Shown in pieces: positions 1 to 12,014 of a stretch of DNA of 12,134 nucleotides. Position 1 is the first letter of the stretch. Each line of letters begins with the position of its first letter. The stretch is from Candidatus Thorarchaeota archaeon (lineage in GTDB: Archaea > Asgardarchaeota > Thorarchaeia > Thorarchaeales > Thorarchaeaceae). Below the pieces are notes generated by a model. It was not told where the DNA came from, did not search any database, and worked only from the letters and a program-made list of their open reading frames with translations. The translations under genes and the position numbers were made by a program. The stretch lies in NCBI GenBank assembly GCA_048884785.1, contig JBHLQM010000038.1, forward strand, positions 21,037-33,170, in the 5' to 3' direction.

Positions 1-153
1 AGACTTCTATTGAATCCTGATCTGCTCTCTGAGATTGGGAGAAATGCCCGAAGAACTGTTGAATCCAATTTCAGTCTACAGAAACACAACCAAAGGCTCA
101 TGGCACTCTACACAGAGCTGATTCGCTCTAAGTCATCAAAAGAAATAGTGTAG
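1..153 (+). CDS. C-terminal fragment of probable GT-B/GT4-family glycosyltransferase (partial, 5' end outside window)
   Basis: Frame +1 is open from base 1 to TAG at 151-153: RLLLNPDLLSEIGRNARRTVESNFSLQKHNQRLMALYTELIRSKSSKEIV*. This resembles the typical GT4 C-terminal pattern 'll.dp.l...lg.nar..v...fs......l..ly..l'. Confidence 0.65.
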   Translation, partial: RLLLNPDLLSEIGRNARRTVESNFSLQKHNQRLMALYTELIRSKSSKEIV

Positions 154-176: not shown

Positions 177-794
177 TTAGTCAGTTTTCGCAGGTGCCAT
201 ATATCGCATCTTGAGGACATGATACAATTTGGCAAAGATTGGTGTCAGGAAGAGGATGGTAGGGATTCCTGTAGTTAGCAATGGTAGTATAGCAAATCCA
301 ATCCCAGCCAGCATCGAATAGCCTTCAACAGTAATTCCGATTACAAAGAGAAGCAGACCTGTGATGAGAAAGCCAATTACTGAGAGGGAAGAGAGCTTGG
401 CTAAAGATCTGCCGCTCTCGAAATCGTATCTCTTCAACCCTGCAATGAGTCCTAGTACTCCATACGCAACTGCGGGTAATGTCATTGTTACTAGAACATT
501 GTAGGCAACTAGTCCGTACAGGACTACTCCAAAGTATCCAGCAATGAAACCTGCAAATGATCCTCGAATTCCACCTGTGGCCGCAATAATCGCGACTCCA
601 GGTAGAAGTCCGAATTTCAGTATGCCCACCATAGTGAAGGGCATTGGAATAAGCGAAATACCAACGTAAAGAACCGCACCAATAGCTCCAAAGAGTATGG
701 TCCTGAGAATCATATTCCTATTTTGAAGGCTGAATCTCCGCACTTGAGAGGAGGGAGTGTCTGTTTGGGCTGTTTCCATTGTAACTTCGTTCAT
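177..794 (-). CDS. ECF-transporter S-component-like membrane protein (about 5-6 TM)
   Basis: 205 aa, hydrophobic and Gly/Ala-rich. N-terminal helix 'ILFGAIGAVLYVGISLIPMP' carries an AxxxA motif, followed by 'PGVAIIAATGGIRGSFAGFIAGYFG', matching the S-component (DUF1393/RibU-like) pattern. RBS GAGGTG (803-808) overlaps the upstream gene's TGA. Confidence 0.65.
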   Translation of the reverse strand: MNEVTMETAQTDTPSSQVRRFSLQNRNMILRTILFGAIGAVLYVGISLIPMPFTMVGILKFGLLPGVAIIAATGGIRGSFAGFIAGYFGVVLYGLVAYNVLVTMTLPAVAYGVLGLIAGLKRYDFESGRSLAKLSSLSVIGFLITGLLLFVIGITVEGYSMLAGIGFAILPLLTTGIPTILFLTPIFAKLYHVLKMRYMAPAKTD

Positions 795-806
795 ACTTCT
801 TCCACC

Positions 807-2435
807 TCACATAATTACGAGTTGGTATGTACCGGGATTAAGAGTGAGTATGTAGTTGCTTCCTACAGCAACAAGATCACCCAGACTTATACCGGCGGCA
901 TAGGCTGTGGGAGTTTCATCAAAATTGCTGAATGTGAGAGTGGCATGTTCATCAACCTGTATATTCAGGATGAAGGCATCTTTCTCGGCATCCCACTCTG
1001 CCTGATAGACCCAGATTTTTTCGTCATCCGCTGCACTAATGTACGGATAATCCCAAAACTCAGATGGACGGGCACTGGCCATTTCTTTCACGGTGACAGG
1101 AAGTGTGCTCCATACCGAAAATCCGCCAACAACTGGGGCTAAGAAGGGCTCCAATGATGATGTGTCGTAATGCATCATTCGGCCATCTTGAGACCAGACC
1201 TTATTGTAAAGGTCCTGTAGAAAATTCAATACACGATCCCGGGTAGCATAATCGCCCCTCTGATTTGCCAAGACTGTCGTGAATACATTTGCAAGCATCC
1301 CGTTGACATCCCCAAATACTGATGGATTCCGGTACGAGCCCATCATGTACATCACGTCGTTGGAGAGGTCCTTGCCATAGATGTCGATGAAATCTGAGTA
1401 TCTGGGTATGATTTTGTCAGGGATTGTATATTCAAGAAAGGTTAACGCCCATGCTAGTCCATACCCATTCACCCTTGGGAGACCTAGCTGCCGATTGAGA
1501 GCGGGTCCAGGGTATTGTTGTGGTTGTGTTTCGGGGAAGGGGGTGAGTCCCATGGGCTCTTGGACAAAGTAGCCATCAATGAATAGTCCATGCTCATCTG
1601 TCATTTCAGATTCAATAAAATCTAGACCAAAATCCCAAAGACCTGTTTCCATCCAACTTTCGTTGTACAAATTATCATACAGCTCAGTTGTAAAGATAGG
1701 GATGCTATTACACTGAGCGAATACAATATACGGCTCACAGGGAATGAGTCCTGCACCCCATATTCCACCCTCTTTTGGATTTGAAAATCCATCTGTCGTC
1801 AGTGAGTTGTTCCAGTCTTCAATGAACCAAGTGACCTCATCGGTCATTTCGCTGGTGTGGAAGTTTCTCTCATAGAGAAGCATCATCAATGCATAATGGC
1901 CTGTCCACATGATATTGGCTGGCCCACGAAAGCCACCAGTATAGAGATCGTCTTCGTTTGGATGGGTTGCGTTTGGATAGTAGTAGTCACGAAACTGGTA
2001 GTTATCCCACTCAATGTGCTCAATGGAATCATTACCATATTCAGCATTAGTTGTATTCATGCTCTTGATAAGAGAGTAGACAAAATTCCGGTACTGTTCA
2101 GTACGATAGCCTGATGTTACTTCAAACATCGATTCAAACACATAACTCGTGAATGCTAACATGTAATGTAGAGTCCCTCGGTACCTATTGGCGTTCCACC
2201 CTTCAAAATCATTGTAGGAACTTCCTACAACGAAGTCATTGAAATAGTTGAAAATGGCTAGTTGTTCCTTCGTCAAAGACTTGTAGTCAGAGAAATCATA
2301 GATGACTCCGTTGATTACTTGCCTGCCAGAAGGTGCAGTGGCTCCAGGCAAATTACTGAATGTCATACCACCAAGGATGATGGCAAATGTCAGCGATACT
2401 AGAATGAATTTGTTGGCTTTTGCGGAAATTCCCAT
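807..2435 (-). CDS. Exported linalool dehydratase/isomerase (LinD/Ldi)-family protein with C-terminal beta-rich extension
   Basis: N-terminal signal/anchor (KANKFILVSLTFAIILGG). Motifs FEGW...HYMLAFTSY, NIMWTGHYALMMLLYE and IPCEPYIVFAQCNS...LYDNLY match, as recalled, Castellaniella LinD FEAW...KYSIAFYAY, NIMYKGHLNLMYGLYQ and IVCEPDNYFVQCNS...VYDRLH. Several N-x-S/T sequons (NTT, NDS, NAT, NNS, NES). Confidence 0.85.
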   Translation of the reverse strand: MGISAKANKFILVSLTFAIILGGMTFSNLPGATAPSGRQVINGVIYDFSDYKSLTKEQLAIFNYFNDFVVGSSYNDFEGWNANRYRGTLHYMLAFTSYVFESMFEVTSGYRTEQYRNFVYSLIKSMNTTNAEYGNDSIEHIEWDNYQFRDYYYPNATHPNEDDLYTGGFRGPANIMWTGHYALMMLLYERNFHTSEMTDEVTWFIEDWNNSLTTDGFSNPKEGGIWGAGLIPCEPYIVFAQCNSIPIFTTELYDNLYNESWMETGLWDFGLDFIESEMTDEHGLFIDGYFVQEPMGLTPFPETQPQQYPGPALNRQLGLPRVNGYGLAWALTFLEYTIPDKIIPRYSDFIDIYGKDLSNDVMYMMGSYRNPSVFGDVNGMLANVFTTVLANQRGDYATRDRVLNFLQDLYNKVWSQDGRMMHYDTSSLEPFLAPVVGGFSVWSTLPVTVKEMASARPSEFWDYPYISAADDEKIWVYQAEWDAEKDAFILNIQVDEHATLTFSNFDETPTAYAAGISLGDLVAVGSNYILTLNPGTYQLVIM

Positions 2436-2564
2436 GCTGAAAGACTCAACTCCGAGGAATTGACTCCGACATGACTTGCGTACCTAGTTATATAGCTTCC
2501 ATTAGGATTACCTGCAATGCAAACGAGACCATGGTCTGTGGTTAGACAGGTTCCGAATTCGGAA

Positions 2565-2581
2565 ATAAAAAGAATAAGAAG
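2565..2581 (-). terminator. U-rich tract downstream of the small membrane-protein gene (archaeal-type terminator candidate)
   Basis: The minus strand reads CTTCTTATTCTTTTTAT shortly after the TAA at 2595-2597, and is followed by the palindrome TTCCGAATTCGGAA. Confidence 0.35.
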
Positions 2582-2594
2582 AGGGGCAAGTTCG

Positions 2595-2759
2595 TTACAA
2601 CAATACAATCGCTGCAACGAAGCTCACAGCATAAACAAGATGAATCAGTATGAGGGTCATTCTTGTAAGCTGGATACCTCTTCTTCGGACTAATTCGCCG
2701 CCAAGCCAGCACGTAATAATCGATGCAAGAAATAGGGCTCCAATCATTGAAATATCCAT
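2595..2759 (-). CDS. Small 54-aa two-TM membrane protein (not in the ORF track)
   Basis: ATG at 2759-2757 to TAA at 2597-2595: MDISMIGALFLASIITCWLGGELVRRRGIQLTRMTLILIHLVYAVSFVAAIVLL*. GGAGG RBS at 2772-2768, 8 nt upstream. Starts 3 nt after the upstream stop. Two hydrophobic helices, and it shares a CWL-x20-HxxY motif with the upstream gene. Confidence 0.75.
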   Translation of the reverse strand: MDISMIGALFLASIITCWLGGELVRRRGIQLTRMTLILIHLVYAVSFVAAIVLL

Positions 2760-2762
2760 AGA

Positions 2763-3026
2763 TTAGCCCTCCCATGCTTCGATTGCCTTAATGCGACGGG
2801 CCGAGCGGTAGTATACTACAAATAGTATCCCTAGGTATGAAACGTGAAATACCGCCCATACATAGTCAGACACCGATTGCACAAAATCCGGCAATGCCGC
2901 TGGAACCAGCCAACAGAGAAACAGCGAGAAAAGCAGCACAAGGACTAGCTTTTTCCTAATGCTTCGTCCATTGTAATGGTCCGGAACGACCGGAATTGAT
3001 TTAGAAAGACTTTGATTTTCCATCAT
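2763..3026 (-). CDS. Small 87-aa two-TM membrane protein
   Basis: Two hydrophobic helices (LVLVLLFSLFLCWLVPAAL; VWAVFHVSYLGILFVVYY) flanked by basic residues (RSIRKK; RSARRIK). First gene of the cluster divergent from the Lrp regulator. Confidence 0.75.
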   Translation of the reverse strand: MMENQSLSKSIPVVPDHYNGRSIRKKLVLVLLFSLFLCWLVPAALPDFVQSVSDYVWAVFHVSYLGILFVVYYRSARRIKAIEAWEG

Positions 3027-3166
3027 TGTTGTTCAATATATTGTCATGAAGCAAACTACTAGAAACCTAGGCAAGCAAAGGCTTCAGAAATCGAGCATAT
3101 TTTCAAGTAAAAGGTACCATTTTTGAGGAGGAAAACTCAAAGTTGATAGCTAATAGGTGAAAACAT

Positions 3167-4099
3167 ATGGACTCCTTCGATCGGATTCTCTTGGCTGAAT
3201 TGGCTGCTAACTGCCGTGTGTCCTTCACTGACTTGGCAGAGAAATACAGTTTTTCTGTTAATACAATCAAGAAGAAGGTAGAAGACCTGGTTCAAGAAGG
3301 TGTGATTCATGCCTTTGATGTTCAAATTTCGCTTCGGTCAGTCGGAGCCAGTTTCGCGGTGACCATGATAGAATTAAATTCCGATTGGTCTGGAGACCGT
3401 CTGAAAGAACTCGGAAAACATCCGAATATCTACAGTATTGCGTCAGGAATACGGTCAGAAGCATTGGTCCTAGTAATCTATCGAAGCAATCAGGAGCTCA
3501 CTGAAGTTGTTGACTTCCTCCAGTCTACTCCAGGAGTCTCGAAGACCGAAACAGTCCCTTTGCTGTATCCCCTTTCAGCAGGTGAAATGCCTCCATCGAA
3601 GGGTCTTGAGGATCTAAAGAGAATTGACTGGATGATCTTGCAGAAATTGAAATGGAATGGACGAATGCAACTTGGAGAATTGGCCAACGTTGTTGGAGCC
3701 TCACCTGCCAGCGTACGAAAACGCCTTCAGTTTATGCTGAAAAATGGTCTAATCAATCAGACTATTCTTGTCAATCCGAGCTTGACCAAAGGATTGGTAG
3801 TAATGTATGCTCTCAGTATAGAAGAGTTATCTTCCGAGATTCAGCATCGTCTAGATTTGCTACTTGCAGAAACGTTTCCAGACAATTATTGGTTGAGTTG
3901 GAGAGTTGCAGACCGATCGCTTTTACTCTTGACATTTCAGGTTCAGAGCACAAAGGATGCTCTTGAAATCAGAGATAGATTATTGGAACTTATACCAGAT
4001 TCATCCATAGCAAAACAGCTCCTGGTTGGTGTGTGGGAGTATTTTCCGGACTTCCGAGATGATTTGATTGCTTCCCGTTTAGAATCATACAAGAAATGA
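3167..4099 (+). CDS. Tandem (double HTH + RAM-like) Lrp/AsnC-family transcriptional regulator
   Basis: Two AsnC-type wHTH units (MDSFDRILLAELAANCRVSFTDLAEKYSFSVNTIKKKVEDLVQEGVI; LKRIDWMILQKLKWNGRMQLGELANVVGASPASVRKRLQFMLKNGLI), each followed by a beta-alpha-beta ligand-binding-like domain. RBS AGGTGA upstream. Confidence 0.9.
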   Translation: MDSFDRILLAELAANCRVSFTDLAEKYSFSVNTIKKKVEDLVQEGVIHAFDVQISLRSVGASFAVTMIELNSDWSGDRLKELGKHPNIYSIASGIRSEALVLVIYRSNQELTEVVDFLQSTPGVSKTETVPLLYPLSAGEMPPSKGLEDLKRIDWMILQKLKWNGRMQLGELANVVGASPASVRKRLQFMLKNGLINQTILVNPSLTKGLVVMYALSIEELSSEIQHRLDLLLAETFPDNYWLSWRVADRSLLLLTFQVQSTKDALEIRDRLLELIPDSSIAKQLLVGVWEYFPDFRDDLIASRLESYKK

Positions 4100-4147: not shown

Positions 4148-4630
4148 TCAATCAACACTAAAATACTCTCGAATTGCTATTGCATGCCCACCCTCATGTC
4201 CTTCGCCACGGTAACGATAACCAAAGATAGAGGAAACGGATACTTTGCCGCCTTCGGGCCACATTTCGTCAAGTTCAAAATTCCATTCATTCTCGGATAA
4301 GCTCCTTATCCTATCCACTAGAGCATTATAGGACTCTTGCCATTCAGTGATGACCTTCTCCAAGGACCAAGATGCACGAGTTTCGACTGCAATCCGATTG
4401 AACTCAGCTTCAGTAATGTATGTGTGCCAAGGAGGCTTTCCGGAAAGAACAAGATTCGCTTGAGTGATGATTTCCCAGTTCCAAGCAGATATGTGTGCAA
4501 TGATTTCCTTTGCTGTCCAGGTGCCTTGGACTTGCTCAAATATCATCTGCTGCTCGGTGAGCTTGGAAATGGCTGTTTCTAGTTTATGATGATCGTTTTC
4601 GAAGAATAGGATTGCCTCCTCTCGATTCAC
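4148..4630 (-). CDS. DinB-superfamily / ClbS-DfsB-like four-helix-bundle protein
   Basis: WTAKEIIAHISAWN and C-terminal HEGGH give the DinB-type His triad. 160 aa, GTG start. Confidence 0.8.
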   Translation of the reverse strand: MNREEAILFFENDHHKLETAISKLTEQQMIFEQVQGTWTAKEIIAHISAWNWEIITQANLVLSGKPPWHTYITEAEFNRIAVETRASWSLEKVITEWQESYNALVDRIRSLSENEWNFELDEMWPEGGKVSVSSIFGYRYRGEGHEGGHAIAIREYFSVD

Positions 4631-4773
4631 TTATCCCTACCTCGACAAACTAATGCCTATTTACTAGCAACTCTGGATTCTACCAAAGCCTTCGGGCTTC
4701 TATGTTTTTGAGGTGGCATATCTCTAAATATGCATTTGGCAACTACGAGTTTTGACTAGACAGGTGTGAAACA

Positions 4774-5832
4774 ATGGACTCCAGAGTAATCAAACATGCT
4801 GAAACTCTTGTGAATTGGAGCACCTCTGTGTCGGAGGGAGATATGGTTCTAATTCGTGCCTATCCAGAAGCACATGATTTGGTTGTGGCAATTACTGGAG
4901 AAATCGCGAAGAGAAGGGCTGGCTATATGATATTGATGGAAAATGATGAGGCTCTTCGCACATATCTTGAATATGCGGACGATACAACTCTGTCGCTCTT
5001 TCCTAGACAGTACAAGTCAGCACTTGAAGAGAGTGATGTAGTGATTCTGATTACCGCGCCCAATAGGATTGATGTTCTAGCTGAATCGGACTCAGAGAAG
5101 CTTGCATTACGGTCTAAGACAAGAAAACCACTCTTTGATTTGATGATGAGCAAGAGATGGTGTGATACTCTACATCCTTGCTATGCTTTGGCCAAACAGG
5201 CAGGAATGAGCCTCGAAGAATACAGAGATTTTGTATACAATGCGATTCTCATAGACTGGAATGAAATTTCAAAGGAAATGTCGATTTTGAGAGATAATCT
5301 GAACCGGTTCAAGGATATTCACATTATTGGACCTGAAACTGATCTCTATGCAGAAACTGCAGGAAGATCATGGATGATGGAAGATGGAAAACACAACATG
5401 CCTAGTGGTGAAGTCTATACTTCGCCTCTCGAGGATTCTGTTGAGGGGAGAGTATACTTTGATATCCCCTTCTTGTATCAGGGCAATATCATCGAGGGAG
5501 TTAGATTGAGGTTTGAAAAGGGATCTGTTGTAGAATATTCAGCAGAACGAGGAGAACAGACCCTCAAGTCAATTCTTAATGTTGATCCTGGTTCGAGCCG
5601 GCTTGGAGAGATAGCAATTGGCATGAATAGAGGAATCAAGAAGCACAGTATGACAATGCTCTTCGATGAGAAGATGGGAGATACAATTCACTGTGCTTTA
5701 GGAAAGGCACTTGGAGAGTGCAATGGTACAAACGATAGTGCTATTCATGTCGATATGATCAAGAGTATGCACAAGGGCAAGATACTCGCAGGTAGTGAAA
5801 CCATCTACAACCAAGGAGAGTTTGCCTACTAA
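4774..5832 (+). CDS. M29-family aminopeptidase (AmpS/AmpT/PepS-like)
   Basis: Motifs NMPSGEVYTSP, LGEIAIG, LFDEKMGDTIHCALG and SAIHVDM supply the Glu/Glu/Glu/His/His/Asp metal ligands. RBS AGGTG upstream. Confidence 0.92.
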   Translation: MDSRVIKHAETLVNWSTSVSEGDMVLIRAYPEAHDLVVAITGEIAKRRAGYMILMENDEALRTYLEYADDTTLSLFPRQYKSALEESDVVILITAPNRIDVLAESDSEKLALRSKTRKPLFDLMMSKRWCDTLHPCYALAKQAGMSLEEYRDFVYNAILIDWNEISKEMSILRDNLNRFKDIHIIGPETDLYAETAGRSWMMEDGKHNMPSGEVYTSPLEDSVEGRVYFDIPFLYQGNIIEGVRLRFEKGSVVEYSAERGEQTLKSILNVDPGSSRLGEIAIGMNRGIKKHSMTMLFDEKMGDTIHCALGKALGECNGTNDSAIHVDMIKSMHKGKILAGSETIYNQGEFAY

Positions 5833-5938
5833 CTAAGACTTGTCCGGGCAATTAGAGACTACTATTTTTGGCGCACGTCGCAATATATTAAGGAAAACTC
5901 CAGTTGCGTGTTTTGCATTCTAGGCGAGATGGTCCCAA

Positions 5939-6844
5939 GTGAAATCAGATACACATGAAAATCGGTTCACCATTATCACAGATCCAACTGATGATGAAGT
6001 GCAGAAGTTCCAGAGTGGCTTCGAAGAGGACAATATGCGCAGGACAAATCGTGAATACAATTGTCCTGAAGAATGGCTTAGTCTTATTCTTAGAGATCAT
6101 GATGGAAATATTGTTGGAGGCATAATGACCAGCACTCTGTTTTGGGTTCAGTACCTTGAGGTGCTGTGGGTGGACGAAAGGTATCGAGGGCTTGGCTATG
6201 GAAAGGATCTCATCCTAGAGGCAGAACGGATGGCGAAGGAGAACGGATGCCGAGCATCCCACACCTACACCTTCTCATGGCAAGGAGGTGATTTCTACCA
6301 GGCAGTGGGATATGACCTCATAGCAACTTATGATGGATTTGTAGATGGAGTTAAAGAATACATTCTGATGAAGTCCTTAGACTCCATTAAAGAGGTTCCA
6401 TCTCAAGATACAGACCCCACTCGATTCACAATCTCTAAGGACTCAAGTGAGGAATCACAGCTCGTTGTACGTAGAGGGCTCGGGAGAGATTTCGAGGATA
6501 ATGTCAGCGAGCTGCTAAAGAGATATCCGCATATCAAAATCCAGTTGATTATCAAGAATGAAAAAGAACAAGTGATTGGAGGACTGTGCGGTTATTCACT
6601 GCTTAGGACTGTGAATATCGGAGAATACTGGGTTGATGAGAGGTATCGTGGACAAGGCTATGGGAAAGATCTCTTGATGCTTGCTGAGAAAATTGCCAAA
6701 GAGAATGATTGTATTGCTTTTCAGACGCACTGTTTTTCGTTTCAGGAGATTAACTTCATGAAAAATCAAGGCTTCGCGGTATATGGGCTGTCGGATGCAT
6801 ATCCCAGAGATGTGAAGGAGTATTATCTTATCAAGAGATTATAG
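5939..6844 (+). CDS. Tandem two-domain GNAT N-acetyltransferase
   Basis: Two acetyl-CoA-binding motif A copies: LWVDERYRGLGYGKDLILEAE and YWVDERYRGQGYGKDLLMLAE. Similar C-termini (VKEYILMKSL / VKEYYLIKRL). GTG start. Confidence 0.9.
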   Translation: MKSDTHENRFTIITDPTDDEVQKFQSGFEEDNMRRTNREYNCPEEWLSLILRDHDGNIVGGIMTSTLFWVQYLEVLWVDERYRGLGYGKDLILEAERMAKENGCRASHTYTFSWQGGDFYQAVGYDLIATYDGFVDGVKEYILMKSLDSIKEVPSQDTDPTRFTISKDSSEESQLVVRRGLGRDFEDNVSELLKRYPHIKIQLIIKNEKEQVIGGLCGYSLLRTVNIGEYWVDERYRGQGYGKDLLMLAEKIAKENDCIAFQTHCFSFQEINFMKNQGFAVYGLSDAYPRDVKEYYLIKRL

Positions 6845-6865
6845 GATTTGGGAAGCAAAAATCAC

Positions 6866-6892
6866 GATTATGCAAGAAGATTCCGCATAATC
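6866..6892. terminator. Inverted repeat between convergent genes
   Basis: GATTATGC (6866-6873) and GCATAATC (6885-6892) form an 8-bp stem with an 11-nt loop, in the gap between stops at 6844 and 6899. Confidence 0.45.
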
Positions 6893-6898
6893 CATTCT

Positions 6899-7852
6899 TC
6901 AAATGAATTCGATATTCTTTGTAGCGTTCTCAACATATCTCCTCTTTTCGCCATACTGTCTTGATGACTTTATCAGAAATAATCCCACAATGAAGAGCAA
7001 TGGAAACGGAAGAAACATCATGAAGAAGAGAAAAAGAAACATTGAAAACGCTAATCCTGACACAAGACTAACTATCCCTATTAGAATGGTTGTGGTTTCT
7101 TTTGCCAAGCCCCTTGTGTACATCCAGACTTTATAGGCAAAAACAAAACCCGGGATATAGATAATTGAAAAAAATATTAGAAACCCTACGGGATATATTA
7201 GAAACCAGAACTCGAAGTCTAAGCCATAAGACAAATAGAACATCCAAGTTGGTGCGTGTAAGGAAAAGGTTGACCAAGAAAATGCGATGTTTTGAGGAGA
7301 AAACAGAGCTAGATAGAGCATAATCAGTCCTGTTCGACTTGATTCGTTGCTAGTGCGTACTTGAGATTTCGATTCTTGGTACCAAATATCAGCTCTTTCA
7401 TACTCTTTACGCTCAAGTTCCCATCTAACATAAGGAATCAAAACAAAGGCCATGAAAACTGGATAAGTCACTGAAATGCCAGTATAAACGGCCATAGTGA
7501 GTATTCCAAAAGCTGGAAAAAACACTATTGCAGCAATGTGGAGAAAGAATATCAACAAGGATGCTACGATTGCCTTATCAGATAGTGGAGTATAATGTGG
7601 TGTCTGATCCTTGAAATACAGGAATACAAAGCAAGGAAGACTTGTCAAAACAAAAAGAATGACTAGGGGAAGGGATGGCACCACAATTAAACCGGAATGT
7701 GGTTCGTAGTTAGAGAACGACCAGAGAATTGATTCTAACCCCCTGACCCCTGATTCAGGAGAAATGTCAAGGAAGAAGCTGTATGGAATTATCATCAGTG
7801 CGATATACAGAAGTATTCTCTTAATCCACCGCCTTATTACTCCATCCTCCAC
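6899..7852 (-). CDS. Hypothetical polytopic membrane protein with internal two-fold repeat
   Basis: About 7-8 hydrophobic segments in two blocks separated by a hydrophilic linker (ELERKEYERAD...SSRTG). Start codon uncertain: the GTG overlaps the upstream gene by 32 nt. Confidence 0.75.
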   Translation of the reverse strand: MEDGVIRRWIKRILLYIALMIIPYSFFLDISPESGVRGLESILWSFSNYEPHSGLIVVPSLPLVILFVLTSLPCFVFLYFKDQTPHYTPLSDKAIVASLLIFFLHIAAIVFFPAFGILTMAVYTGISVTYPVFMAFVLIPYVRWELERKEYERADIWYQESKSQVRTSNESSRTGLIMLYLALFSPQNIAFSWSTFSLHAPTWMFYLSYGLDFEFWFLIYPVGFLIFFSIIYIPGFVFAYKVWMYTRGLAKETTTILIGIVSLVSGLAFSMFLFLFFMMFLPFPLLFIVGLFLIKSSRQYGEKRRYVENATKNIEFI

Positions 7853-9551
7853 AGGTTTTCCCTCTTTCTCGAATAGTCATCATTCTGATTCTCCTTTTGA
7901 GCAGGATAGAGATTGTTATGACTGATACTCCCACTAGAGCACAGATAATGACTATATGTATTTGAAAAGGCGTGACACTACCGTTTGGGAGAATACTTGG
8001 ATAGTGGTCTATGCTAGTCCATTCAATCTCATATACTCCTATTCCATAGTAATCGCTCCAACTGTTCCCAACGCTTGAACCGTCATCCCAAGAGTTAAAG
8101 CGGCCATAATCAATGGCGTTTGAATACCCATTCCAACCTATGCTATTGTTGTAGATTCGATTGTATGCAGCAAACCCTTCGTAATATCCATACCATGGAT
8201 ATTCAATAAGAACACCTGTGGAATTGTTATACGTGATCGTGTTATTGTATACGAAGCAGTGTGACCCAAAGATATTGATCCCAACATAGTTTCGTGTTAT
8301 AGTGTTACCAATTGAAGTCGAATTATCAGAAAGGTAGAGCCCTGTCCAAAGGTTCCCTCTGATAATAGAACGAATTACAGTTTCGCTGCTGGAATTATAA
8401 GTGGGATTTATGCCATTGTGCAGATTATCTTCAATGACACAATCCACAGCTGTGAAGAATGGAGAGAATGCTAGAGATACTCCGTTGCCCGAGCAACTAA
8501 CGACATGGCACGCTCGAAGAGTAATACCGGTGGAGTCCTCAGCATAGACTCCGTTGTAATGACAATGGGTTATGAAGCAATTTTCAAGGGTGATATTAGT
8601 TGAGTCCTGAATATGTACTCCGCCCCAATAGCACTCAGAAACATTGGAGCTTTCAACTGTACAATTGTTACTATGTATAATTTGAATGCCTGTGGAGCAG
8701 TTCTGAAAATCCCCACCACTGATGAGTGTGTCATTGCAGCTCAGAAGGATAGCCTGACCGTACTGAGCAAGGTTCACTTCCGCACTTGATAGGCTTTGAA
8801 AGAAACCAATATCCTTTCCATTTACGAGGTTATTTGTGATATTGTATGGCAGCCTCACAAGCTCTTGGTATGAATAGAAGAGGCTTTGCGGGTAATTCCA
8901 GAACTGCATCTCTAGTCCGCAGTCCGTGAATTCGTTCCCGATAACTGTGACATAAGCTGAAGAATCCAAAATAAGGCCAAGATTATCATTGATGAAGTGA
9001 TTATCCGAAATGATTGTGTTGTTGCATATCTCTAGAGTCAGACCAGTATCACTAGATAGGAATTCGTTCTCACTAACTATGGAATCCCTACAATCACCCA
9101 TCCACAGGGCTTCGGGGAGCTCGGAGCTACTGAACACGTTTTCATTAACAATTACGTTCTCTGAGCTAAGAATATATAACGCAGCAGTTGATGCAAAGCT
9201 ACATTCTTCTATAACCCCATTTGATATCCACTCACAAGCGAGATTTTCAAACGATATGTTGCAGTATCTGATGACGAAGTACGCTGAAGTATTGTGAATG
9301 TATAGACCAAGGTCGATATCCTGATTCTCCAATAGATATGGACTAAATATTGAGCCATTTCCTGAGAAGCCGTACAGCGTGAAGTCGCTATTGTCGCTGA
9401 TTTCAATAGGTGTATCATATCCGTTCCTGTGAACGGATGCTGTTGTCGCCAAAGCGGGCAACTCGAAATAATAAGCCATGGAAGGCAATCCTGGTTGTGC
9501 AAGTCCCAGTAGAACCATGTTCACGAGAAGGAATACGAAAAATCGCTTCAA
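7821..9551 (-). CDS. Secreted right-handed parallel beta-helix (NosD/pectin-lyase-like) surface protein with C-terminal TM anchor
   Basis: Signal peptide MKRFFVFLLVNMVLLGLA; N-cap PIEISDNSDF..GFSGNGS..PYLLEN; about 22-23-aa Asn/Cys-rich repeats; C-cap WDDGSSVGNSWSDY...DHYP; TM followed by KRRIR; many N-glycosylation sequons. TTG start. Confidence 0.88.
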   Translation of the reverse strand: MKRFFVFLLVNMVLLGLAQPGLPSMAYYFELPALATTASVHRNGYDTPIEISDNSDFTLYGFSGNGSIFSPYLLENQDIDLGLYIHNTSAYFVIRYCNISFENLACEWISNGVIEECSFASTAALYILSSENVIVNENVFSSSELPEALWMGDCRDSIVSENEFLSSDTGLTLEICNNTIISDNHFINDNLGLILDSSAYVTVIGNEFTDCGLEMQFWNYPQSLFYSYQELVRLPYNITNNLVNGKDIGFFQSLSSAEVNLAQYGQAILLSCNDTLISGGDFQNCSTGIQIIHSNNCTVESSNVSECYWGGVHIQDSTNITLENCFITHCHYNGVYAEDSTGITLRACHVVSCSGNGVSLAFSPFFTAVDCVIEDNLHNGINPTYNSSSETVIRSIIRGNLWTGLYLSDNSTSIGNTITRNYVGINIFGSHCFVYNNTITYNNSTGVLIEYPWYGYYEGFAAYNRIYNNSIGWNGYSNAIDYGRFNSWDDGSSVGNSWSDYYGIGVYEIEWTSIDHYPSILPNGSVTPFQIHIVIICALVGVSVITISILLKRRIRMMTIRERGKTCGGWSNKAVD

Positions 9552-9758
9552 CTGGAAATGCCCCTCTTCTCACACCTGATTAGTAATCCTGCTCCTCTTC
9601 TTTTATCCTTTGAGTATGAATTGTGCACCAGAAGGAGCTAGGACTAGTCGGATGAAATTTGAGTGACTCCAAATTATCGAGCCTACAATAATTGTTCTAC
9701 CATAGAATGGGATTTATCTGTGAGAATCTAGTCAATGACTGGCATATTGGTGAGTTCA

Positions 9759-10733
9759 ATGATAAGAACAAGAGTAACAGAGATGTTGGGATGCAAGTAT
9801 CCGATTATAGCAGGTACTATGGCTAGGATTTCTAATCCTGAGTTTACTGCAGCAGCCAGTAATGCTGGTGCCTGTGCTGTTTTAGCAAGTGCGAACTTCA
9901 AATCACCTGATGAGCTACGTGACGCAATCAAGAAGACGCGGTCACTCACAAATCAACCATTTGCAGTAAATATCAATCTGTTCCCTGCCTTGATGCCTCA
10001 AGATAAGTTGGAGGATTATGTTGATGCCACACTGGCCGAGGGTGTGAAGATCATTGAGACCAGTGGCCACAAGGCTCCAGAGGCGTTGATCCCCAAATTC
10101 AAGAAGGGAGGCGTTATCTGGATTCACAAGTGTGCTGGAGTAAGATATGCGATAAAGGGAGCGTCCTTGGGGGCTGACATCATAACGGTCGTCGGTTATG
10201 AGAATGGTGGAGCTACTGGAATCTTAGATATTGGAACGATGGTGATGACACCATCTGTAGTTGATGCGGTGAATGTCCCTGTGATTGCAGGAGGTGGCAT
10301 ATCAGATGGTAGAGGTATCGCCGCAGCCTTGGCATTGGGTGCCGAAGGAGTAATTATAGGCACACGAATGATGGCTACGAAGGAGTGCCCCATTCATGAC
10401 AACCTTAAACAAGCATTCATTCAGGCTGCAGAAACTGACACAGTTCTAGCTTTACGATCGGTTGGAAATACACATAGAATATGGAACAATAAGGCTGCAC
10501 AGCACCTGCTCGAACTGGAGGGACAAAAAGCACCTCTATTTCAGCTCATTCAAGCTGCCTCTGGAGAAAAGGCTCAGGAGATGTATAGGAACGGAGATAT
10601 TGACATTGGGGTTGTAAGCTGTGGACAAGGTGTAGGCTTGATTAAAGATATTCCCACTGTCAAGGAGTTGTTGGACCGGATAATGACTGATGCAGAAGAA
10701 GTAATCTCACGCCTTAGGGGATTATCCAAGTAG
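9759..10733 (+). CDS. Nitronate monooxygenase / FabK-like FMN TIM-barrel oxidoreductase
   Basis: TRVTEMLGCKYPIIAGTM, TNQPFAVNINL, VPVIAGGGISDGRGIAAALALGAEGVIIGTRMMATKECPIH and CGQGVGLIKDIPTVKELLDRI. Start placed at ATG 9759 because GGTGA lies at 9749-9753; the ORF-track start at 9735 is also possible. Confidence 0.9.
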   Translation: MIRTRVTEMLGCKYPIIAGTMARISNPEFTAAASNAGACAVLASANFKSPDELRDAIKKTRSLTNQPFAVNINLFPALMPQDKLEDYVDATLAEGVKIIETSGHKAPEALIPKFKKGGVIWIHKCAGVRYAIKGASLGADIITVVGYENGGATGILDIGTMVMTPSVVDAVNVPVIAGGGISDGRGIAAALALGAEGVIIGTRMMATKECPIHDNLKQAFIQAAETDTVLALRSVGNTHRIWNNKAAQHLLELEGQKAPLFQLIQAASGEKAQEMYRNGDIDIGVVSCGQGVGLIKDIPTVKELLDRIMTDAEEVISRLRGLSK

Positions 10734-11144
10734 CATGAGGTCAATAGATGCGAAAACCTAAAGAAATGTCATGCGATATTGTATATGTGGTAGAATGGCT
10801 AGAAAACGAAAATTGGAAAGGAAGAGGTTCTTGCTGTTTCTTTACCGTTCCAGCTGGTCCAAATTCCTTAGTATCTGGCAAGGGAGTGAACGCCCTGGGA
10901 TAATGCCATGGATGATTGATGACGGTTATCCACCAAGACCTCTCAGAAAGAAACGCAAGGAACCGAGAATTCTAAGAAAAAACCATTACAGGTAGTTCAA
11001 AGAAGCAGATGCCGGACCAGCTGTGATCAAGATGGCAATTAGATATTCCAAGTATTCACAAGTTCCGGGATAGTTCGCTCTGATTCAAAGCATTATTATT
11101 CAGATGCGTCCTATGGATTCGGAATAATCGGAGTGAGATTCTAA

Positions 11145-11981
11145 TTGACAGATAGAGAGAGTGATTACGTGGGTCGGGGTACTGAAGAGGAAGTCATGCG
11201 ACTAGAACTTCAGGCGGCTGCGCTCAGTGATATCATCGATCAGGAAATAGATGCGTTGGATATACGGTCAGGAATGTCAATTCTGGATGCTGGATGTGGA
11301 TCCGGTGCTATTACTCGCAGGTTTGCCCGTAAAGCGCATCCAGCAAAGGTTGCGGGTGTTGACTTTGATGAGATATTTCTTGAATACGCCAAGTCCATTG
11401 CTGAAGATGAAGGTATAAACAATGTAACATATGAATTGGGAGATATAGACAACCTCGCATATCCAGATGATTCCTTTGACTTGACCTATTGCAGGCTGGT
11501 TTTGATGCATGTCAAAGATCCCGTGAAGACTGTAAAAGAACTCAAGAGACTGACTCGGAAGGGGGGCGTTGTTGCTATATCTGACCAAGATGATGATGCT
11601 GTAATTCTATATCCATATCTTCCCAAAATGATGGACTTGTGGAGAAGGTATGGACAGTGGGCGAAGAAGATGAATATGGATCGGCATATCGGAAAAAAAC
11701 TATTCTCAATCCTCTCTCAGGCGGGACTTAAAGAAATCAAGATATTTCTCTTCTCTATTTATGAAACTCAGGAAACTCCAGAAAAACTGAAGATGTTTGT
11801 ATCAGTTCCAGTACAAATAGTGAAAATGAGTAAAGAAGATTTGCTGACGGATGGAGTATTCACTGAAGCCGAGTATTATAGTGCCTTGCAAGAAGTTGAA
11901 TCATTTGAGAACCATCCAGGCGCCTTTGTCATGAGCACATTCTTTCTTGGAGTTGGGTATGTTCCACAAGAAGAAGAATGA
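11145..11981 (+). CDS. Class I SAM-dependent methyltransferase
   Basis: Motif I ILDAGCGSG, post-I VAGVDFD, motif II FDLTYCRLVLMHV and motif III LTRKGGVVAI. N-terminal 'YVGRGTEEEVMRLELQA'. TTG start. Confidence 0.9.
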   Translation: MTDRESDYVGRGTEEEVMRLELQAAALSDIIDQEIDALDIRSGMSILDAGCGSGAITRRFARKAHPAKVAGVDFDEIFLEYAKSIAEDEGINNVTYELGDIDNLAYPDDSFDLTYCRLVLMHVKDPVKTVKELKRLTRKGGVVAISDQDDDAVILYPYLPKMMDLWRRYGQWAKKMNMDRHIGKKLFSILSQAGLKEIKIFLFSIYETQETPEKLKMFVSVPVQIVKMSKEDLLTDGVFTEAEYYSALQEVESFENHPGAFVMSTFFLGVGYVPQEEE

Positions 11982-11988
11982 GGTGAAA

Positions 11989-12014
11989 TGGCGGGCCAGA
12001 CGGGATTTGAACCC
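11989..12014 (-). pseudogene. Isolated 3' fragment of a tRNA gene (part of the T-arm, 3' acceptor strand, G73, CCA); att-site-like
   Basis: The reverse complement reads GGG-TTCAAAT-CCCGT-CTGGCCC-G-CCA. The sequence 5' of it (..TAGTTT) neither completes the T-stem nor supplies D or anticodon arms or a 5' acceptor strand. Confidence 0.8.

Follow-up and report, generated by a model that had tools for sequence, protein, structure and literature searches.

Gene layout at the locus

The DNA analysed here (the window; 12,134 nucleotides, positions 21,037 to 33,170 of contig JBHLQM010000038.1, in our numbering G000:C38:21037-33170) belongs to a metagenome-assembled genome (MAG; G000, 91% complete) of a Candidatus Thorarchaeota archaeon. 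Five of its open reading frames (ORFs) form two modules. Module A (177-2435), the main subject of this study, encodes a relative of the linalool dehydratase-isomerase LinD, referred to as the enzyme, and a membrane protein with the fold of the S components in transporters of the energy-coupling factor (ECF) type, referred to as the partner; module B (2595-4099) encodes an Lrp/AsnC-type regulator and two microproteins. The features of module A are as follows:

177-794, minus strand: partner, 205 amino acids (aa), six-helix membrane protein with the ECF S-component fold (structural model and family matches)
795-808, minus strand: 12-nt gap from enzyme to partner, with a GAGGTG ribosome-binding site over the TGA stop codon (sequence)
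807-2435, minus strand: enzyme, 542 aa, LinD fold (Pfam Ldi and structural model)
2488-2500, minus strand: element GGAAGC-TATATAA, resembling a transcription factor B recognition element (BRE) and TATA box, candidate promoter of module A (motif recurrent upstream of homologues)

For the four co-oriented genes on the minus strand (87, 54, 542 and 205 aa), strands and lengths in the ORF list agree with the first-pass annotation, and hydrophobic helices are present in each product, in line with its statement that all four are membrane-bound or exported. Its description of the junction in module A was likewise accurate: the enzyme and partner genes are 12 nt apart, and the ribosome-binding site (808-803) overlaps the stop codon of the enzyme gene and lies 8 nt before the ATG of the partner gene, an arrangement in which the two genes would be translationally coupled. 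Between the 54-aa gene and the enzyme gene lie 159 nt that contain a T-run (2580-2562) and the BRE/TATA-like element (2500-2488, approximately 53 nt upstream of the start codon of the enzyme gene), and thus the four genes probably represent two transcription units. Of 45 homologous regions upstream of the enzyme, 36 carry a TATA-type motif, whose pattern was defined after inspecting these regions, compared with 2.8 in shuffles (maximum 9 of 1000). Judged by these motifs, module A has its own promoter.

A putative membrane-anchored relative of LinD

The 542-aa protein matches the Pfam family Ldi (PF18566) with 55.7 bits (cut-off 26.1) and the LinD chains with an E value of 2e-8, which corroborates its earlier designation as LinD-like; LinD is its only sequence match in the PDB, and its named homologues are mostly from Candidatus Thorarchaeota. 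The structural model (predicted local distance difference test, pLDDT, 92) superimposes on LinD of Castellaniella defragrans (Ldi, EC 4.2.1.127; PDB 5I3T, 5G1U) with a Z score of 38.9 and a root mean square deviation (rmsd) of 2.2 A over 341 aligned residues of 5i3t, at 21% identity, while the next fold reaches a Z score of 21.4. Like LinD, the enzyme is modelled as an (alpha/alpha)6 barrel (approximately residues 30-460). In contrast to LinD, it adds three elements: an N-terminal membrane helix (residues 9-26) with a conserved Lys in front of it, an acidic insertion, and a C-terminal beta domain (residues 465-541, approximately 80 residues) for which a Pfam search gave no match.

Alignment to the LinD motifs NIM..GH and CEP......QCN, which the enzyme shares, gives a catalytic set of M176, H180, C233, E234, Q241 and C242, plus Y91, Y98, Y325 and W329. 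No variation was found among 86 Thorarchaeota homologues at M176, H180, C233, C242, Y98, Y325 or W329, and residue 234 is E in 76 of these and Q in 10. The two active-site cysteines, C233 and C242, are the only cysteines of the protein. The segment aligned to the LinD active-site residues Tyr44/45 (PMC12455561) is not conserved but variable; Y74 is present in 60 of the 86 Thorarchaeota sequences and absent from other Asgards, with the register of this segment being uncertain. Sequence and model together identify the 542-aa protein as a LinD-family relative and at most a putative linalool dehydratase, and its conserved catalytic core makes isoprenoid-type chemistry plausible. The positive-inside rule, four sequon positions conserved in the enzyme and the complex model described below argue for an outward orientation, which would correspond to the exported location of LinD.

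Five distant LinD homologues (P0184, P0187, P0190, P0192, P0198) are long, probably bacterial proteins with a C-terminal extension, some of them annotated as MYXO-CTERM; they constitute an uncharacterised surface-anchored LinD branch.

A partner with the fold of ECF S components

A Pfam search of the 205-aa protein itself gave no significant match, but PF07155 was matched at E<=0.1 by 30 of the 41 members of its family, and some distant family members score above the PF07155 cut-off. The top 15 structural matches of the model are all S components (best Z score 15.5, rmsd 3.3 A, 162 residues), as are the top 18 matches obtained with Foldseek. The partner can thus be regarded as S component-like, as had been proposed from the sequence, and it shares the six-helix fold of ThiT, RibU, FolT and PanT.

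In S components, an AxxxA motif in helix 1 serves docking to EcfT (PMC11109136). Registered against a canonical S component from the same genome, helix 1 of the partner reads G36-x-x-G39-A40 (GxxxA), and small residues (A/G/S) occupy both positions of the motif in 26 of 41 Thorarchaeota partners. A stand-alone EcfAA'T module is encoded in the source genome (A-A'-T at G000:C21:26483-28918). Riboflavin, a ligand that the Pfam name would suggest, was rejected: the nearby riboflavin kinase gene belongs to a housekeeping block which is present also without the pair, and no riboswitch was found.

The gene pair is a conserved unit

For comparison we used 87 genomes of the same order (Thorarchaeales), which are incomplete MAGs and, where closely related, not independent of each other. 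Of these genomes, 46 have the enzyme, 48 have the partner and 45 have both; the sole enzyme-positive genome without partner is cut by a contig end. In every copy with downstream DNA, which amounts to 50 distinct Thorarchaeota junctions, the partner gene lies directly 3' of the enzyme gene, and the gap is between -4 and 13 nt in 47 of the 50. In two genomes (G055 and G066) the pair has been tandemly duplicated as a unit. Three other Asgard families also keep it, in seven of seven loci and with 26-36% identity, and it occurs on two further contigs, one of them with a Helarchaeota protein. The Asgard enzymes form a single clade (100/98). Beside distant non-Asgard homologues of the enzyme, no S partner was found in five informative contigs (one more was too short), a small sample. 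A mirror-tree correlation of 0.62 between partner and enzyme was left unused, because it is confounded by shared ancestry.

The tandem copies in G055 and G066 (loci L034 and L047) are divergent (51-58% identity for the enzyme, 40-42% for the partner), which suggests different substrate ranges. The enzyme of the window is most similar to homologues from genus g11 (61-62%) and the partner to homologues from the same genus, so that recombination within the pair is possible. Truncated remnants of the partner are present where no enzyme was found (G081:C137:3989-4471; G072:C164 and C43; G046:C31), as would be expected if the gene decayed once the enzyme had been lost.

A predicted complex of enzyme and partner

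Multimer modelling of the enzyme and the S component-like protein, with alignments built in this analysis, predicted a heterodimer with a score of 0.74, compared with 0.00 for the best control; 58 of 80 solved pairs, but only 2 of 110 mismatched pairs, attained the mark set for this score. The runs agree in at least 88% of contacts, and the pLDDT of the partner is at least 81. In the model, contacts on the enzyme side are made by the anchor helix (residues 8-30) and the barrel segments 355-375, 397-411 and 424-428, and on the partner side by residues 50-63, 90-107, 126-135 and 157-189, which cover the loops L1, L3 and L5, that is, the outward-facing pocket side of S components (PMC4820897). 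Helix 1 of the partner is free. We consider a physical complex of the two proteins probable.

Proposed function of the pair

The best explanation, to which we assign a probability of roughly 0.5, is a heterodimer that faces outward, in which a lipophilic allylic alcohol of isoprenoid type is bound by the S-fold subunit and is isomerised, hydrated or dehydrated, feeding salvage or catabolism. It builds on the observed gene pair with its own promoter motif, on the two folds and on the conserved catalytic core. The enzyme and the S-fold protein would form a membrane heterodimer, with the anchor helix of the enzyme packing on the S-fold protein and the barrel docking on the outward pocket face formed by L1/L3/L5. 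The outward-facing enzyme would shift or remove an allylic hydroxyl by LinD-type Cys/His/Glu acid-base chemistry, converting a tertiary into a primary alcohol or a 1,3-diene; candidate substrates would be C10-C20 compounds such as nerolidol/farnesol, geranyllinalool/geranylgeraniol and isophytol/phytol. The S-fold subunit would retain either the substrate or the product within the bilayer. It may also replace the neighbouring subunit of the LinD pentamer, in which the active site sits at the subunit interface (PMC6600392). The primary alcohol might then reach the cytoplasm for salvage or catabolism via the shared EcfAA'T module or by flip-flop, although we regard import driven by the ECF module as doubtful. 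Only tentatively do we suggest that the Asgard S fold is a dedicated membrane subunit of an outward LinD-type enzyme, in which the S fold would have a lipid ligand, the enzyme would be docked on its pocket and the heterodimer would capture and convert long-chain isoprenoid alcohols or dienes; examples may be phytol-derived compounds of the sediment and ether-lipid chains.

A possible link to prenol salvage is found next to the pair: in 19 distinct junctions, a prenol kinase-like gene and a gene for isopentenyl phosphate kinase (IPK) are located at most 2 kb downstream. The IPK assignment is based on NF040647 (177 vs 120 bits), and the gene is usually the second IPK copy of the genome, whereas the polyprenol kinase-like gene has no Pfam match and was named solely by Atlas features and the motifs RKxxH and GDG. 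The latter gene is always paired with IPK in approximately 60 Thorarchaeales genomes (for example L006:9505-11145), and the two probably represent a prenol salvage unit in its own right. Prenol salvage is thus probably available, but the adjacency of the kinases does not make it one pathway with the enzyme. A four-gene salvage operon consisting of the pair, the kinase-like gene and the second IPK was rejected since the two pairs are lost or moved independently, the direct gap between them is 93-162 nt and they do not co-occur.

Several observations weigh against the salvage heterodimer. The kinase pair shows no co-occurrence with the enzyme (36 of 46 vs 28 of 41 genomes, p 0.34), is found at the same locus in enzyme-less genomes, relocates independently, and in the source genome is located on another contig, C55 (G000:C55:15591-17235, L083). 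The identity between enzyme and LinD is low (21%), and the disulfide Cys48-Cys101, which caps the substrate channel of LinD and has been reported as essential (PMC6600392), is missing from the 542-aa protein. Because the enrichment of sequons is slight (5.1 vs 4.2 per protein), the outward orientation can only be inferred. The AxxxA motif is strict in 10 of 41 Thorarchaeota partners, and its residues are bulky in all seven partners from outside the Thorarchaeota. The complex is a prediction, which supports binding without showing it. Finally, the equilibrium of LinD lies toward dehydration and not toward salvage, and salvage would therefore need a downstream pull.

The same equilibrium has been read as detoxification, which fits better with an alternative that we consider rather unlikely, namely that the complex acts in remodelling of the envelope or its lipids. 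It would then modify isoprenoid chains that belong to the cell itself, acting at the outer leaflet, with the S-fold protein presenting the lipid and no import taking place; conceivable reactions are double-bond hydration, allylic ether cleavage or dehydration of membrane-toxic prenols. A MacB/LolCDE-type ATP-binding cassette cluster would serve the same process. This six-gene cluster (MacB/FtsX permease, LolD-type ATPase, Cys-rich small protein, protein with a transmembrane (TM) segment and an Ig-like domain, 324-aa membrane protein with the motif GAMCAYG, and a further small protein) co-occurs with the pair in 28 of 31 Thorarchaeales genomes (p 1.5e-4 when permuted within genera; 0.23 for the kinase control), and in two Asgard lineages it abuts the pair, in five Thorarchaeales genomes and in three genomes of another Asgard family (L003:18-5854, L015, L021, L037, L040; L105:9443-15238, L106, L109). 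With the query used, however, the cluster was not found in 18 enzyme-positive genomes, the source genome and 17 others; its role is putative, and its co-occurrence was determined in incomplete and partly related MAGs. The disappearance of the EcfT motif outside the Thorarchaeota would agree with remodelling, as would the consideration that a tightly docked ectodomain would impede toppling of the S-fold protein, but the patchy presence of the enzyme in 46 of 87 genomes is less expected for a core lipid enzyme.

Even less probable, in our view, is that the partner serves a soluble micronutrient as an ordinary group II ECF S component and that the LinD-fold surface enzyme frees or tailors this non-isoprenoid nutrient. 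The S fold, the matches to PF07155, the small residues at both motif positions in many Thorarchaeota partners, the unoccupied helix 1 in the complex model and the stand-alone EcfAA'T module are what one would expect of such a transporter. On the other hand, neither a riboswitch nor, among the loci compared, a consistently linked vitamin-pathway gene was found, few polar residues are conserved in the partner family, and the LinD catalytic set is intact.

Module B and the remainder of the window

The first-pass annotation had combined both modules into a single Lrp-linked unit. The features of module B and the gene bordering module A are:

2562-2580, minus strand: T-rich run directly 3' of the 54-aa stop codon, possible archaeal terminator of module B (sequence only)
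2595-2759, minus strand: microprotein, 54 aa, two TM helices (homologues and family alignment)
2763-3026, minus strand: microprotein, 87 aa, with the same Cys...His motif (homologues and family alignment)
3167-4099, plus strand: double-domain Lrp/AsnC-type regulator, 310 aa (Pfam and locus comparison)
1-153, plus strand: 3' end of a GT4 glycosyltransferase gene, convergent, start of a housekeeping block (context only)

The regulator is indeed a double one, with two HTH_24/AsnC stretches recognised by Pfam, and is transcribed divergently, 140 nt from the start of the 87-aa gene. By the family alignment the two 2-TM microproteins are paralogous and share a Cys and a His that do not vary, possibly a metal or heme site; BLASTP gave no alignment between the two. 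Homologues of the 54-aa protein were found in 16 of the 87 genomes, of the 87-aa protein in 12 of 87 and of the regulator in 24, and the cassette in approximately 16. In all cassette loci examined (L151-L163) the regulator gene and the microprotein genes diverge, and an aldo/keto reductase gene is found near module B in seven loci.

Module B adjoins the enzyme in only 2 of the 46 enzyme-positive genomes, the present one and its congener G018, that is, in one genus only. The five-gene module was rejected, since the cassette is independent of the enzyme in locus and in genome distribution: co-occurrence is not significant (p 0.79), seven genomes with both carry them on separate contigs, and seven genomes have module B without the enzyme. 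From the module claimed initially, there remains the pair of LinD-like and S component-like proteins, which is strictly conserved (45 of 46 enzyme-positive genomes) and probably forms a physical complex, whereas the regulator and the small-protein pair stand apart. That the 87-aa, 54-aa, enzyme and partner genes form one operon under Lrp control is therefore most improbable, despite the co-orientation here and the same adjacency in G018, where an opposite-strand 146-aa ORF intervenes between cassette and enzyme; moreover, the enzyme seems to have a promoter of its own.

The GT4 housekeeping block is the usual neighbour of module A in Thorarchaeota. On the other side, positions 4148-11981 of the window encode DinB, an M29 peptidase, a double GNAT protein, a NosD/beta-helix protein, a FabK/NMO-like flavoenzyme and a methyltransferase; several of these genes recur upstream of the enzyme in other Thorarchaeota in varying order, which suggests a variable region beside the GT4 block. 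A 26-nt fragment of a tRNA 3' end (11989-12014, minus strand), identical to G000:C49:789-814, is possibly an integration scar.

Comparison with known systems and implications

LinD-type enzymes are prized as biocatalysts for alkene (de)hydration, and to our knowledge they have been characterised in only two bacteria. We found no relevant paper on such enzymes in archaea or Asgards or on isoprenoid-linked S components, in a search that covered mainly freely accessible papers; likewise, the literature searched describes neither an isoprenoid ligand nor an enzyme partner for ECF S components. Both folds are known, but a constant coupling of the two, with docking as predicted here, has no description in this literature. 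While LinD is a soluble periplasmic homopentamer, the Asgard enzyme is predicted to be partnered with an S-fold protein. It resembles Lis, the linalool isomerase of Thauera linaloolentis (PMC4791888), whose LinD-like domain is likewise kept at the membrane to serve a hydrophobic substrate; in Lis, however, the anchor consists of four helices fused to the protein, and a cytoplasmic domain is present, whereas the Asgard enzyme has a single helix, is accompanied by a separate protein with the six-helix S fold and is probably directed outward. With ECF S components the partner shares the fold, the small-residue motif of helix 1 in Thorarchaeota and an EcfAA'T module encoded in the genome, but it differs from them in that its gene is fixed 1:1 to an enzyme gene, in that a surface enzyme is predicted on its pocket face, and in its degenerate AxxxA motif and lack of a detectable riboswitch.

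Known roles of S-component folds include vitamin and metal carriers, sensor domains and MreD (PMC11109136). If our explanation is true, this fold would gain a further role by serving as an enzyme's membrane subunit. The anchored Asgard clade, which does without the LinD disulfide, may act on longer isoprenoids, and if its substrate is an isoprenoid of the sediment, the pair would provide a directly testable entry point, consisting of only two proteins, to the question of how these archaea scavenge or remodel isoprenoid lipids.

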